From the NCBI GenBank assembly GCA_964549305.1, contig CAZJVM010000058.1, forward strand, positions 1 through 15,667: DNA of 15,667 nt, read 5' to 3'. Below the pieces are notes generated by a model, which saw only the letters and a list, made by a program, of their open reading frames with translations, was not told where the DNA came from and did not search any database. The DNA comes from an uncultured bacterium. Its GTDB lineage: Bacteria > Schekmanbacteria > GWA2-38-11 > J061. The position numbers and the translations under genes were made by a program. Every line of letters starts with the position of its first letter. Within the stretch, counting starts at the first letter, position 1. Of the stretch, positions 85 to 15,592 are shown in pieces.

Positions 85-2181
85 CTATATTGCCTTTTGC
101 AAACCGCTTACCTTTGAAACAATGCTTTCCGAAATATTCTGGGGAACTTCTTTGTAAAAGGAAAATTGCATCGAATAAGTAGCTCGCCCCTGAGTCTTTG
201 ACCTCAATGTCGTTGCATAGCCGAACATCTCTGAAAGAGGGACTTTTGCGTTTATAACCTGCGAACCCGCCCGTGGTTCCATTCCGAGAATTTCTCCCCT
301 GCGCGAATTAAGATCGCCTATTACGTCACCCACGTATTCGTCGGGAAGAACAACTTCAACTGACATTACCGGTTCAAGCAAAGCGGGCTTACACTTGTTG
401 AATACCTCTTTAAAAGCCATTGACGCGGCAATCTTAAATGACATTTCCGACGAGTCAACTTCATGATATGAACCGTCCAGGAGAGTTGCCTGAATATCTA
501 TAACCGGATACCCCGCCAAAATACCGCATTCCATCGATTCCTTCAATCCGGAATTTACCGCGGGAATATATTCCTTTGGAATCGATCCGCCTACTATTGC
601 ATTTTCGAAAACAAAACCGGAACCCGACTTAAGCGGTTCAAGACGAATCTTGACATGTCCGTATTGTCCCCTGCCTCCGCTTTGGCGCACATACTTCGCC
701 TCGCCCTCGCAGGCTTTCCTGATTGTTTCCTTATATGAAACGTTCGGTTTACCCACATTCGCGCCTACATTAAATTCTCTTAACAGTCTGTCTGTAATAA
801 TCTCCAGATGAAGCTCTCCCATACCGGAAATCAGCGTCTGTCCCGTTTCTTCGTTTTTTGAAACTTTGAATGAAGGGTCTTCCTGCATAAGTTTTGTAAG
901 CGACAACCCAAGTTTTTCTTCATCGGCTTTTGTTTTCGGTTCAATTGCAACAGATATAACGGGCTCGGGAAAAACAATGGATTCAAGTATTACCGGTTTT
1001 CCAGGGTCGCAAAGAGTATCGCCCGTAAAGGTATTTTTCAGTCCCACAGCGGCAACAATATCGCCGGCATAGACTTCTTTTATCTCTTCCCTCTTGTTAG
1101 CGTGCATTTTCAGAAGACGCCCTATTCTTTCTTTTTTCCCGTTCGATGAATTCAGTATCTGAGACCCCGAACCGATATGCCCCGAATAAACCCGGAAAAA
1201 TGTGAGCTGTCCCACAAAGGGGTCCGTCATAATTTTAAACGCGAGGGCAGTAAAAGGTTTGTTATCATCAGCGAATATCTCCACCGCGTCTTTCCCTTTA
1301 ACCGGTATTGACTCAAAGGGAGGAACATCAACAGGTGAAGGAAGGTATTCGACTACAGCGTCAAGAAGGGGTTGTACTCCTTTATTCTTGAAAGCCGAAC
1401 CACATAAAACAGGCGTTATCTTATTTTCAACTGTAAGTTTTCTTACTGCATCTTTTAGTTCCTTTACCGTGGGTTCAGTGCCTTCAATATATCTCTCCAT
1501 AATGACATCATCATATTCACCGAGTATTTCTATTAGTTTTTCCCTTGCTTGTGCTACGCCTTCCTCAATCCCCGCAGGAATATCATCAGAAGATTCAACT
1601 TCAATACCGAGATTATCTTCAGGAAAAGAAAGAGATTTCATTGTTATCAGGTCAAAAACACCTTTAAAATTTTCTTCGCTTCCTATGGGATACTGAAGAA
1701 GAAGGGGTTTTGACTTGAGGCGCTCTTTTATCATTTTGAGACATCTGAAAAGGTCCGCTCCACTGCGGTCCATTTTGTTCACAAACGCTATTCGCGGCAC
1801 TCTGTACTTGTCAGCCTGTCTCCATACGGTTTCCGACTGAGGTTCAACACCTCCCACTGCGCAAAAAACAGCCACAACTCCGTCCAGCACCCTTAGCGAC
1901 CTTTCAACTTCGACGGTAAAATCCACATGGCCCGGCGTATCTATGATGTTGACTCTGTGGTCTCTCCAAAAACAGGTTGTCGCCGCGGATGTTATCGTTA
2001 TTCCCCGTTCCTGTTCCTGCTCCATCCAGTCCATTGTCGCCGCGCCGTCGTGTACCTCACCCATCCTGTAAAGAATTCCCGTATAATAAAGGACTCTTTC
2101 AGTCGTTGTGGTCTTACCGGCATCAATATGAGCCATTATGCCGATATTCCGGATTTTTTCCAAAGGTACTAGTCTGGCCAT
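85..2181 (-). CDS. fusA: Elongation factor G (698 aa)
   Basis: Motifs [37 protein letters not shown] and GMGELHLEI. Start moved from 2208 to the ATG at 2181 ([12 protein letters not shown]), 7 nt after the rpsG stop. The SD-like AGGTGG is formed by the last rpsG codons. Confidence 0.98.
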
Positions 2182-2188
2182 TAGTATT

Positions 2189-2662
2189 TTACCACCTGTA
2201 ATGGGCAAAAGCTTTGTTAGCTTCCGCCATCTTATGAGTATCCTGCTTTTTCTTAATTGCAGTACCTATATTATTAGCAGCATCGATAATTTCCGATGCC
2301 AGTTTTTCCTTCATACTTTTTTCTTTTCTCGCTGCAGAAGCGTTGATCAGCCATCTTATGCTCAAAGAGATTTTTCTATCTGGCGGAACTTCTATGGGAA
2401 TTTGATAAGTTGCGCCTCCAACCCTTCTGGATTTAACTTCAAGGGAAGGTTTGATATTTTCTATGGCCTTGTAAAAAATCGATATGGCATCATCGCTTTT
2501 CGTCTTTTCTTCTATGGTTTTAATCGCGCCGTAGAAAATTCTTTCCGTAGTACTTTTCTTGCCATCGAGCATTAGGTTATTTATAAAACGACTCACAAGC
2601 ACGCTTCCGAATTTAAGGTCCGGCTGTATTTCTCTCTTTTTAATAAATTTTTTTCTTGGCAT
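2189..2662 (-). CDS. rpsG: 30S ribosomal protein S7
   Basis: MPRK start, [30 protein letters not shown] end; str-operon position. Confidence 0.99.
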
Positions 2663-2699
2663 TAGTGGATACCCTGATCTTTTTTCTTCAAAGGTTAGC

Positions 2700-3074
2700 T
2701 TATTTTGATTCTCTCTTCACTCCGTACTTTGACCTTGCCTTTTTCCTGTTTGAAACCCCCGCAGTGTCAAGGCAACCACGGACAACATGATATCTTACTC
2801 CGGGCAGATCCTTTATTCTTCCGCCTCTGATAAGAACAATCGAATGTTCCTGAAGGTTGTGTCCCTCACCGGGAATATAACAGGTTACTTCATAGCTGTT
2901 AGTCAATCTGACCCTTGCAACCTTTCTCAAAGCCGAATTAGGCTTTTTAGGGGTAGTCGTATAAACCCTCAGGCAAACTCCTCTTCGCTGAGGACAATTT
3001 GAAAGTGCCGGTGAATCCGACTTTTCTTTTATCTTCTTCCTGCCTTTTCTAATAAGTTGGTTCAAAGTTGGCAT
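2700..3074 (-). CDS. rpsL: 30S ribosomal protein S12
   Basis: [43 protein letters not shown] at 3084-3088. Confidence 0.99.
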
Positions 3075-3126
3075 ACTAAACCACTCCCGTGAATGTTCTT
3101 TAAGTTATAGTTAAGAGTCAAACCTC

Positions 3127-3164
3127 AAAAAATTGATTGAAAGATGGCAATCTTTAGCTATCAA
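3127..3164 (-). terminator. Possible weak intrinsic terminator after rpoC
   Basis: The minus strand reads TTGAT-AGCT-AAAGAT-TGCC-ATCTTT-CA-ATCAA-TTTTTT: an interrupted AT-rich stem followed by T6, starting 11 nt after the rpoC stop. The stem is weak. Confidence 0.35.
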
Positions 3165-14148: not shown

Positions 14149-14733
14149 TTAGGTGATCCGTTCTATCTGCAAAAAATCAAATTCGACAGGTGTTGCCCTG
14201 CCGAATATGCTTACCATAACTTTTGCCCGTTCTTTTTCGGGATTGAGTTCTTCAACGTGTCCCGTAAATCCGTCAAAAGGTCCGTCAACGATTTTGACCG
14301 CATCACCTTTTGAAAATTTCCTTTTCATCTTAGACGCCTGAGTTCCCGTTTCCTTCTGCTCGATGATTCTCTCGACTTCCTTCCCTGTCAGAGGAGAGGG
14401 TTCGTTCTGGCTTCCCAAAAAACCGGAGACCTTGGGGATATTTTTTATAATCTGCAATATCTCTTTTCTTGCCGGATCTTCAATCGAATTTCCAAGATCC
14501 ATTTCTATAAGAACATAGCCGGGAAAAAATTTTCTGCTCGTAACCTTCTTAACTCCTTTTTTAAGGCTCGTTATATTTTCCGCAGGCACAAGGATTTCTC
14601 CGATTTTCTCGGAAAAAAGTTTATCTTCCTGTTTATCAGATTCTTTTGATTCCCTTAAAAGCTCATCAAGCGCAATCTTTACTTTATTTTCATAACCCGA
14701 ATAGGTGTGGACAACATACCATTTTTTTGCCAT
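14149..14733 (-). CDS. nusG: Transcription termination/antitermination factor NusG
   Basis: WYVVHTYSGYE and FPGYVL (NGN domain); GPFDGFTG and VSIFGRATPVE (KOW domain); secE-nusG-rplK synteny. Confidence 0.98.
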   Translation of the reverse strand: MAKKWYVVHTYSGYENKVKIALDELLRESKESDKQEDKLFSEKIGEILVPAENITSLKKGVKKVTSRKFFPGYVLIEMDLGNSIEDPARKEILQIIKNIPKVSGFLGSQNEPSPLTGKEVERIIEQKETGTQASKMKRKFSKGDAVKIVDGPFDGFTGHVEELNPEKERAKVMVSIFGRATPVEFDFLQIERIT

Positions 14734-14743
14734 TTCCCAATCC

Positions 14744-15286
14744 CTAATTAATTTGATCTTCCTTTTCAGCCGGAGTTTCCGCTTCTTCGTTTATTGATGG
14801 TTCCTGCGAAACAGCGCTTGCAATATTCAAAGTGCTCTTCACGGCAGAAACCGCACCCTGTGAATCCTTTACCTGCAATCTCACGGAATAGGTTCCCGCT
14901 GATTCAAATTTATGTACGATTATCTTATTTTTTGTAAAATTCTTTGCGGGATAATCCCAGGTCCCGTCTCCTTCAAAATCCCATCTAACCTGCAGGTCTC
15001 TGTTGCCGTCTTCGGAATCATAGGAACCCGTTGCGTCAAAGGTGAATGATGTATTCAAATCTCCCGTCTGAGGATTTACGGAAAATACGGCGACGGGCGC
15101 GTCATTGAGAAGCTTTTTGACGCCGCCTGACAGGACTATGTCCACAAGTCCGAGGTAAAACGCTATGACAACCACGACCACTATGACAACCTTTGTCGAA
15201 TCATATGTTTCCGGCTTGGACGGCCAGGTAACCTTTTTGAATTCCTGCCTTATTTCCTGCAAAAAATCCTTTATTTTTTTCAGCAT
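14744..15286 (-). CDS. secE: Preprotein translocase SecE fused to a C-terminal PKD-like domain (180 aa)
   Basis: aa 1-60 form a single-TM SecE (amphipathic helix, EFKKVTWP motif, TM VVIVVVVVIAFYLGLVD). aa 61-155 are PKD-like, followed by an acidic tail. Lies between tRNA-Trp and nusG; SD GAGGA at 15294-15298. Confidence 0.95.
   Translation of the reverse strand: MLKKIKDFLQEIRQEFKKVTWPSKPETYDSTKVVIVVVVVIAFYLGLVDIVLSGGVKKLLNDAPVAVFSVNPQTGDLNTSFTFDATGSYDSEDGNRDLQVRWDFEGDGTWDYPAKNFTKNKIIVHKFESAGTYSVRLQVKDSQGAVSAVKSTLNIASAVSQEPSINEEAETPAEKEDQIN
14822..15106 (-). other. PKD (Ig-like beta-sandwich) domain within SecE
   Basis: Matches the PKD pattern: N-x-A-P-V-A-x-F, F-T-F-D-A-T-G-S-Y-D-x-E-D-G, W-D-F-E-G-D-G, H-K-F-x-x-A-G-T-Y-x-V-x-L-x-V-x-D-x-x-G. 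Confidence 0.88.
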
Positions 15287-15351
15287 TAATTTGTCCTCAT
15301 CACCTTTATTTTTAAAAGCCCCTTTTCCAACGCCGGACTTTGTTCGATTAT

Positions 15352-15426
15352 CAGGCCAGGAGGGATTCGAACCCCCAGCCCCCGGATTTGGAGTCCGGCG
15401 CTCTATCCAGTTAGAGCTACTGGCCT
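15352..15426 (-). tRNA. trpT: tRNA-Trp (anticodon CCA), 3' CCA not encoded
   Basis: Full cloverleaf: AGGCCAG TA GCTC TAACTGGATA GAGC G CCGGA CT-CCA-AA TCCGG GGGCT GGGGG TTCGAAT CCCTC CTGGCCT G. Discriminator G; typical rpmG-tRNA-Trp-secE position. Confidence 0.97.
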
Positions 15427-15436
15427 ACTAAAAGAC

Positions 15437-15592
15437 TCATTTTGTCTCTTTATGCGCCGTATGGCATTTGCAAAAACGGCAATACTTGGAAAATTCAAGT
15501 TTATCAGTTGTCGTTCTCTTATTCTTGGTTGTCGTGTAATTCCTTCGTTTGCACTGACCACAAGCCAAAATAACCGTTATTCTATCACCCAT
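15437..15592 (-). CDS. rpmG: 50S ribosomal protein L33 (51 aa, Zn-ribbon form)
   Basis: Read manually; absent from the ORF track. [51 protein letters not shown], with two CxxC pairs. Confidence 0.97.

Follow-up and report, generated by a model that had tools for sequence, protein, structure and literature searches.

The window analysed here is the whole of contig CAZJVM010000058.1 (15,667 nt; GenBank assembly GCA_964549305.1), which comes from an uncultured bacterium of the phylum Schekmanbacteria. Its minus strand carries a cluster consisting of rpmG, tRNA-Trp, secE, nusG, rplK, rplA, rplJ and rplL (identified from the list of open reading frames (ORFs), ARAGORN and NCBIfam), in which secE, the gene for the SecE subunit of the SecYEG translocon, has an unusual form. 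A sequence-only reading of this DNA had claimed that secE does not stop after its transmembrane helix but runs in frame into a PKD domain, and this is what was found: a single ORF of 180 amino acids (aa) matches the Pfam SecE family at aa 6–59 and a PKD family at aa 61–153. The coordinates given in that reading, namely aa 61–155 at nt 15106–14822, an acidic, Pro-containing tail at aa 156–180 and 10 nt between the stop and nusG, are all correct, and the motifs SYDSEDG (aa 88–94) and WDFEGDG (aa 102–108) that it had picked out are present. The gene is referred to below as secE-PKD, and the features of the locus are as follows, where AF2 stands for AlphaFold2 and dN/dS for the ratio of nonsynonymous to synonymous substitution rates.

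14744..15286, minus strand: secE-PKD ORF, 180 aa, ATG start and TAG stop; from the ORF list and the SecE and PKD Pfam matches on one polypeptide; nine sequences
14744–14746, minus strand: TAG stop of secE-PKD
15107..15286, minus strand: SecE core, aa 1–60 (PF00584, TIGR00964, solved SecE chains, AF2 helices)
14822..15106, minus strand: PKD (Ig-like beta-sandwich) domain, aa 61–155, predicted to be periplasmic (PF18911, PF00801, AF2, Foldseek, dN/dS)
15104..15106, minus strand: Asn61, directly after the SecE helix; counterpart of the ColH s2b Ca2+ ligand Asn774 (alignment to ColH)
15005..15025, minus strand: SYDSEDG loop, aa 88–94, in which D90 and D93 (or E92) are counterparts of the ColH s2b ligands Asp802 and Asp804
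14861..14866, minus strand: D141-S142, both invariant; counterparts of the ColH s2b axial ligand Asp844 and the water-positioning Ser845
14747..14821, minus strand: C-terminal tail, aa 156–180, acidic with some Pro, variable and probably disordered (AF2, alignment, proportion of nonsynonymous differences (pN))
15294..15298, minus strand: GAGGA, Shine-Dalgarno-like, 7 nt 5' of the secE-PKD ATG (read from the sequence alone)
15351..15427, minus strand: tRNA-Trp (CCA), the canonical upstream neighbour of secE (ARAGORN)
15437..15592, minus strand: rpmG, ribosomal protein L33 (TIGR01023)
14149..14733, minus strand: nusG, starting at 14733, 10 nt 3' of the secE-PKD stop (TIGR00922, 188 bits)

The first 60 aa correspond to a SecE. 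PF00584 matches aa 6–59 (E 5.9e-19, 68.2 bits, cut-off 22.7) and TIGR00964 (secE_bact) matches aa 5–59 (56.9 bits, cut-off 27.55), while a phmmer search of the PDB aligned aa 3–59 with solved SecE chains of 56–70 residues (3din_D, 3dl8_C, 5eul_E and 2zjs_E). The AF2 model, built from a 7-row alignment, contains two helices in this part, H2–17 (amphipathic, predicted to be cytoplasmic) and H30–60 (predicted to be transmembrane), at a low predicted local distance difference test score (pLDDT) of 49–65. Exactly one SecE match, that of secE-PKD, was present in the genome to which the window belongs (2.94 Mb, 169 contigs, 100% complete), and the two other genomes of the phylum in which the fusion was found (G003 and G001) each have a single match. 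Judging from these matches and the canonical locus, secE-PKD is the organism's sole, functional SecE, as the claim of a housekeeping secE implied, and a role in SecY binding and translocation is predicted for it. A prediction of the complex between SecY (5-row alignment) and the isolated PKD part (aa 58–160), run without controls, gave no verdict either way (score 0.00, mark 0.32). The SecY frame in all five genomes of the phylum lacks an ATG near the conserved N-terminus (VIETFQNIF...; at about 1291 of L175, G000:C20, in the genome of the window), and the start is apparently a GTG.

The remainder of the protein is dominated by a single domain. PKD_4 (PF18911) matches aa 61–153 (E 4.2e-13, 49.6 bits, cut-off 27) and PKD (PF00801) matches aa 68–149 (E 1.3e-10, 41.5 bits, cut-off 23.5). 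In the same AF2 model, pLDDT ranges from 76 to 92 per 10-residue block over aa 61–150 and drops to 41–43 in the C-terminal tail. When the model was compared with the PDB using Foldseek, the best matches were 2C26, ColH s2b (4JGU), ColG s2 (4AQO, 4TN9, 4JRW and 2Y72), Vibrio Epp and PrtV PKD1, with target-normalised TM-scores of 0.77–0.85 for the seven single-domain chains at ranks 2–9. Nine of the ten best matches are named PKD or PKD-like; the first-ranked entry, 2c26, is titled as carbohydrate-binding modules and contains a PKD domain. A sequence search of the PDB with aa 61–168 retrieved the PKD domains that also top the Foldseek list. The PKD or Ig-like fold that had been proposed from the sequence is therefore borne out by Pfam, AF2 and Foldseek. 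The domain has a core motif of the WDFGDG type, W102-D103-F104-E105-G106-D107-G108, of which W102, D103, D107 and G108 are invariant and generic.

The in-frame architecture was found in nine distinct sequences with 48–85% identity, which are those from the genome of the window (G000), G003 and G001, one from a metagenome contig (L091) and five further database proteins. A search of a protein collection returned seven proteins of 168–196 aa (55–99% identity), all seven with PF00584 and PKD families, and one database SecE-PKD is annotated 'preprotein translocase subunit SecE [Candidatus Schekmanbacteria bacterium]'. Logan contigs of two other runs, namely X2 record 9 (15065–15218) and X3 record 18 (14998–15148), bridge the junction at nt 15106 with no indel. 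The lone difference in these contigs is a G>T change at 15092, which falls on the third position of the Val65 codon and is synonymous. RNA runs were absent among the sequencing runs listed. Within the PKD part, a stretch at about 14924–14972 lies outside contig coverage in all three runs compared with the window. Run X3 also produced apparent joints that skip 480–645 nt, and these were disregarded as their sides are 22–26 letters long at 90% likeness and derive from nusG and tRNA-Trp of other organisms. Because nine sequences share the frame and contigs of two runs bridge the junction, chance or assembly error is excluded for practical purposes as the source of the fusion.

The PKD domain is also under purifying selection, though with weaker constraint than the SecE part. 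For G001 and L091, the sole pair in which synonymous sites are unsaturated (dS 0.43–0.51), dN/dS was 0.137 for aa 1–60 and 0.230 for aa 61–155. Between G000 and G003, pN was 0.086 for the SecE part, 0.159 for the PKD part and 0.539 for the tail. Values for the tail ranged from 0.42 to 0.82; it has no conserved columns in the alignment, its length differs between homologues, and it is unconstrained.

The possibility of a Ca2+ site, raised in the sequence-only reading, was examined by alignment to ColH. In PMC4356367, the Ca2+ ligands of ColH s2b are given as Asn774, the carbonyl of Lys775, Asp802, Asp804 and Asp844, with Ser845/846 positioning a water, and Ca2+ is described as aligning the N-terminal linker with the axis of the PKD domain and raising its stability. 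The counterparts in SecE-PKD are N61, D62 (main chain), D90, D93 (or E92) and D141, with S142 at the water-positioning residue. N61, D90, E92, D141 and S142 are invariant among the SecE-PKD sequences and position 93 is D or E. Asn61 is kept in 7/7 sequences of the alignment and in 9/9 overall, and the ColH-type ligand set is likewise kept in 9/9 except at position 62, which contributes the main chain only. The PKD part thus appears to keep the ligand set of the collagenase PKD domains, and the conserved ligands strongly suggest that it binds Ca2+, in line with the guess. Asn61 follows the Pfam SecE match and the helix, and what would be the linker of the PKD domain in SecE is the end of the SecE transmembrane helix. 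When compared with 630 PKD domains from the 149 best-scoring multi-PKD proteins, a background that is biased to the query's own subclass, the residues specific to the SecE-linked family were D76, Y89, G116, K119 and K126. K115, K121 and K129 are mostly conserved and, together with K119 and K126, form a Lys-rich stretch at aa 113–130.

The SecE helix crosses the back of SecY diagonally and ends, at its C-terminus, on the trans side. Homology of the first 60 aa to SecE chains of 56–70 residues, taken together with this established SecYEG topology, strongly suggests that the PKD domain is periplasmic, and the side of the membrane to which it had been assigned is thereby supported. According to PMC6857650, minimal SecE homologues are tail-anchored and are targeted by their transmembrane domain (TMD) and short tail, the class being characterized by one TMD that lies no more than about 30 residues from the C-terminus. 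With about 120 residues after the TMD, SecE-PKD falls outside this class.

Five species genomes of the phylum were covered. G000 and G003, which belong to the same genus (71% identity), carry the fusion, as does G001 from another family (57% identity), where an ORF of 161–163 aa is followed by nusG. The position of the gene among rpmG, tRNA-Trp and nusG is conserved, with the same order in G001. These are 3/3 of the phylum genomes in which the locus is assembled. In the other two, G004 (98% complete, 20 contigs) and G002 (70% complete), SecE, NusG and L11 were not found, and SecY is present in both. The whole secE/nusG/rplK cluster seems to be missing from these two assemblies, and they therefore say nothing on loss of the fusion.

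Pattern scans covered 185,579 species genomes and a metagenome collection, with 80 loci taken from each, and a SecE-like ORF was found in 65/80 of the genome loci and 73/80 of the metagenome loci. One further fusion, the 172-aa L091, was recovered in the metagenome scan, and the 137 other related SecE ORFs all stop 0–5 residues past the equivalent of aa 60. This sample is made up of the SecE most similar to the query (from Desulfobacterota, Spirochaetota, Omnitrophota and others) and is biased but relevant. In a domain-wide sample, 385 of 401 genomes had a SecE match; a profile of the whole fusion was spanned over both halves only in G000, G003 and G001 and in 0/396 genomes outside the phylum, and its other matches cover either about 1–66 or about 57–165. 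In these samples the architecture is not widespread. Six unusually long SecE open frames from the 401-genome sample, inspected among the matches listed with 238 further SecE matches left out, were each extended at the N-terminus or upstream, and their C-terminal tails have 7–28 residues. In an unrelated genome, a SecE (L180, G195:C3) ends in a C-terminal tail of 28 residues with a hydrophobic stretch (WSFATLGLFAFILFWVY), and this tail could be an extra C-terminal helix, a different C-terminal variation of SecE.

A representative search with the whole protein returned 19,653 matches and was swamped by multi-PKD proteins, and only P0007 was a fusion among the 150 matches listed, which makes this search unsuitable as a census. 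A word-based homologue search with aa 1–62, which is weak as it needs shared words, returned only the three closest fusions at similar length and a fusion in 0/21 longer candidates. In the ESM Atlas, no SecE+PKD cluster was seen among the clusters of at least 50 members, where the best scores (0.81–0.85) were all for PKD-only clusters, a result that counts as no more than a lead. A Bacteroidetes metagenome-assembled genome (L018) that aligned to residues 4–160 at 26% by tblastn was rejected as a fusion, as phmmer found no SecE-like ORF in it. Literature searches on SecE with a PKD domain, a C-terminal extension or a fusion to a periplasmic or Ig-like domain found no description of SecE-PKD, which agrees with the sequence-only reading, and the Schekmanbacteria papers among the matches listed concern, by title, ecology, sulfur or nitrogen metabolism. 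As sampled, SecE-PKD is restricted to one small uncultured phylum. The architecture is solid, and SecE-PKD is, as far as searched, a previously undescribed form of SecE.

The export machinery of the organism appears otherwise complete in the components that were examined. Its genome encodes SecD, SecF, SecG, a 570-aa YidC with a long periplasmic region, a PpiD-like frame of 623 aa and several SurA_N_3 proteins, and a BamA match indicates that the organism is diderm. The likeness to PpiD/YfgM or to the P1 domain of SecDF that had been suggested for the PKD domain can therefore not mean replacement, since the PpiD-like protein, SecD, SecF, YidC and SecG are retained. The idea that the domain stands in for a missing chaperone or accessory factor was ruled out, as SecD/F, YidC, PpiD-like and SurA-like proteins and SecG are all present. 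Judged by gene content, the PKD domain is an addition to the export machinery and replaces nothing.

Only five PKD_4 matches were found in the genome. The closest paralogue of the SecE-linked PKD domain (45% identity) is the one PKD domain of a 495-aa secreted protein (L006, G000:C14, 1156–2643, plus strand), which also contains an N-terminal region rich in Lys and, in two repeats, a DWRLPT-KEL motif; this protein is a possible pool from which the PKD domain of SecE was drawn. A predicted lipoprotein of 317 aa (L172, G000:C29, 1011–1964, plus strand) combines a PKD domain with a C-terminal region that looks OmpA-like from motif reading of the translation. It is directly followed by a PrsA/SurA-like lipoprotein of 340 aa (2113–3135, plus strand) with a SurA_N_3 match. 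On contig C96, PKD and SurA_N_3 matches are about 2 kb apart.

Within the window, rplL is followed by two long ORFs of 1499 and 1410 aa, which are assigned to rpoB and rpoC by position only, and past these by rpsL, rpsG and fusA, all on the minus strand (NCBIfam equivalogs). The listed fusA ORF (85–2208, minus strand; 707 aa) has a TTG start and overlaps the end of rpsG (2189–2662, minus strand) by 20 nt. The true fusA start probably lies further downstream, because the match to the EF-G profile begins at aa 10 of this ORF.

The likeliest role of the PKD domain would be that of an accessory module on the trans side of the channel. We give slightly better than even chances to a reading in which SecE-PKD serves SecYEG as such a module, stiffened by Ca2+ and contacting emerging chains or neighbouring periplasmic domains. 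A lineage-specific fusion would have turned a tail-anchored subunit of 60 aa into a type-II membrane protein. Residues 1–60 would bind SecY as in the solved SecYEG structures, and the helix would emerge into the periplasm behind SecY and run with no linker into one PKD beta-sandwich, followed by a floppy tail. Periplasmic Ca2+, held at a site built partly from Asn61, would stiffen the joint, so that the domain would keep one fixed pose on the trans side of every translocon. Because no linker separates it from the end of the SecE helix, the PKD domain would sit beside the pocket that receives the open plug on the SecE C-terminus and beside the YidC P1 site. When a disulfide ties the SecY plug to the C-terminal region of SecE, the channel is locked in an open state, with lethal effect (PMC2585858), which places the displaced plug by the SecE C-terminus. 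In the Escherichia coli structure of PMC13434473, YidC occupies the back of SecYEG; TMH3 of YidC faces TMH3 of SecE, and the P1 domain of YidC is periplasmic. At this position the PKD domain might work like the Ig-like lumenal cradle of TRAP, alongside PpiD, SecDF and YidC. By the established rules for the translocation of long periplasmic domains, the 120-aa C-terminal part of each new SecE copy would have to be exported through a Sec channel already in place, and SecE biogenesis presumably depends on pre-existing translocons.

Several observations weigh against an accessory module of this kind. The PKD part changes at about twice the rate of the SecE part (pN 0.16 vs 0.09, G000–G003). The pLDDT falls below 50 at the junction (aa 53–58), and because AF2 is poor there the pose of the domain cannot be fixed. 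Most of the invariant residues of the PKD part are generic to the closest PKD subclass, and the only family-specific ones are D76, Y89, G116, K119 and K126, which leaves no obvious large surface that is both conserved and novel. A dispensable or niche role would explain the restriction to a very small clade equally well.

A more specific function, in which the PKD domain, made rigid by Ca2+ and held beside the channel exit and the open-plug pocket, is a built-in holdase or ratchet pawl that captures unfolded chains or stabilizes the open plug, and so gives an outward bias without ATP, seems rather unlikely to us. A little less likely again is an envelope tether, where the PKD domain, perhaps with the tail, binds a component of the envelope, such as a glycan, a peptidoglycan-associated protein or another PKD protein, and fixes or clusters translocons or couples them to outer-membrane machinery, with no contact with substrate. 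Among solved structures, PKD domains are found in collagenases, in surface-layer proteins and in carbohydrate-active enzymes, a BamA match marks the organism as diderm, and the same genome encodes the lipoprotein with PKD and OmpA-like parts that adjoins a PrsA/SurA-like lipoprotein. The conserved lysines (K119 and K126, and mostly K115, K121 and K129) could bind an anionic partner. However, a PKD domain is about 4–5 nm long, and with no linker between helix and domain it would stay near the inner membrane, while the tail, the part that might reach far, is unconserved in both sequence and length. Carbohydrate-binding residues were not identified in the domain.

To much the same small degree we would credit a role in the service of SecE itself, be it in topology, protection from proteolysis or a biogenesis tied to active translocons, or a PKD domain that is a nearly neutral passenger. 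The fusion does end the tail-anchored status of SecE by placing 120 aa past the TMD, and most of the conserved residues of the domain are those of the generic fold or the Ca2+ site; Ca2+ is also described as raising PKD stability in PMC4356367. The purifying selection on the domain (dN/dS 0.23), which holds across lineages in which synonymous sites are saturated, speaks against pure neutrality. A further point against this group of readings is that all other bacteria sampled do without the PKD domain.

Cleavage of the protein just past the SecE helix, perhaps by signal peptidase near S53-G54, would release a free periplasmic PKD domain and leave a minimal SecE, but is very improbable. The small residues S53, G54 and G55 after the hydrophobic core, with V51 at −3 to S53, bear a weak likeness to a cleavage site, but aa 53–59 lie within the SecE Pfam and TIGR matches and have counterparts in the solved SecE chains, the alignment shows no conserved AXA-type motif, and the Ca2+ ligand Asn61 right after the helix suggests an intact, rigid junction.

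Production of two proteins from the one gene has hardly any standing. A −1 slip at AAA-AAG (K57-K58, 15113–15118, minus strand) would give a 61-aa SecE as well as the full-length protein, like tau and gamma of dnaX, since the −1 frame continues GCT TCT CAA TGA, with a stop after three codons. A-AAG sites are slip-prone in E. coli. However, the AAA AAG hexamer is present in only 1/4 DNA sequences (G003 has AAG AAA, and G001 and L091 have AAA AGG), and the nearby −1 stop is a trivial outcome of the conserved Leu-Asn codons. The frameshift idea was rejected, as the hexamer is unconserved and probably due to chance. That an assembly chimera or a frameshift masks a stop after aa 60 might be suspected of a metagenome-derived genome in 169 contigs, and is of negligible probability given nine sequences from several sources in the same frame, two runs bridging the junction and purifying selection downstream of it.

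SecE is among the most conserved and most minimal of membrane proteins, and the variation described in it is N-terminal. A conserved, selected and folded domain on its predicted extracytoplasmic end would mean that the back trans face of SecYEG can bear a permanent accessory module in a bacterium, that an essential tail-anchored subunit can be converted to a Sec-dependent type-II protein with viability kept, and that a bulky neighbour is tolerated, or exploited, in the region by the open-plug pocket and the P1 site of YidC. SecE-PKD with its cognate SecY and SecG would also be a compact natural construct for asking if Ig-like domains on the trans side aid bacterial translocation, the part proposed for TRAP in the ER. 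Even if the PKD domain is dispensable, it still marks a permissive fusion site for engineered periplasmic display at the translocon.

The closest known relatives are the minimal SecE of Thermotoga maritima (3DIN D), Aquifex (3DL8 C), Geobacillus (5EUL E) and Thermus (2ZJS E), which over their full length correspond to aa 1–60 here. They share with SecE-PKD the Pfam and TIGR family, the single copy and the place of the gene between tRNA-Trp and nusG. Minimal SecE ends within a few residues of the helix, whereas SecE-PKD has 120 more residues, including a folded domain. The three-helix SecE of the E. coli type and the long actinobacterial SecE are likewise lineage-specific extensions of the same essential subunit. 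The proteobacterial and actinobacterial extensions are N-terminal extra helices or cytoplasmic tails, in contrast to the C-terminal and predicted extracytoplasmic extension of SecE-PKD, and the NCBIfam PRK05740 models match SecE-PKD only via their C-terminal ~55 positions.

The added domain has the same fold as the PKD domains of ColG (s2) and ColH (s2a and s2b; 4AQO, 4JGU and 4U6T) and of the Clostridium thermocellum endoglucanase (2C26), with Foldseek E-values of 1e-7 to 1e-5, target-normalised TM-scores of up to 0.85 and 28–35% identity, and in ColG and ColH the Ca2+ ligand positions are the same. In the collagenases and the endoglucanase these domains are spacers in secreted multidomain enzymes, whereas in SecE-PKD there is a single copy welded to the membrane helix of a channel. 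The SecE-PKD domain also differs from the collagenase domains in a longer C-C' region with family-specific lysines. YidC P1 and SecD P1 are further beta-rich periplasmic domains attached to the translocation machinery, but they are other folds on other proteins, and YidC and SecD/F are still encoded beside SecE-PKD.

On the trans side of a Sec channel, the nearest parallel is TRAP (alpha, beta and delta), whose likeness to SecE-PKD lies in an Ig-like beta-sandwich placed there via a single helix and is a functional analogy only. Below Sec61, the Ig-like lumenal domains of TRAP form a cradle for which contact with emerging chains has been proposed, and TRAP-alpha has its single helix opposite the lateral gate (PMC10279528). 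TRAP chains are absent among the Foldseek matches listed for SecE-PKD, and no direct comparison was made. Unlike SecE-PKD, TRAP consists of separate, ribosome-anchored subunits that are not fused to Sec61-gamma, and its hydrophobic cradle has no demonstrated counterpart in SecE-PKD. If the holdase or ratchet function proves true, SecE-PKD would be a bacterial equivalent, encoded by one gene, of the lumenal cradle of TRAP, and nature would have proved that accessory domains can be attached at the C-terminus of SecE.

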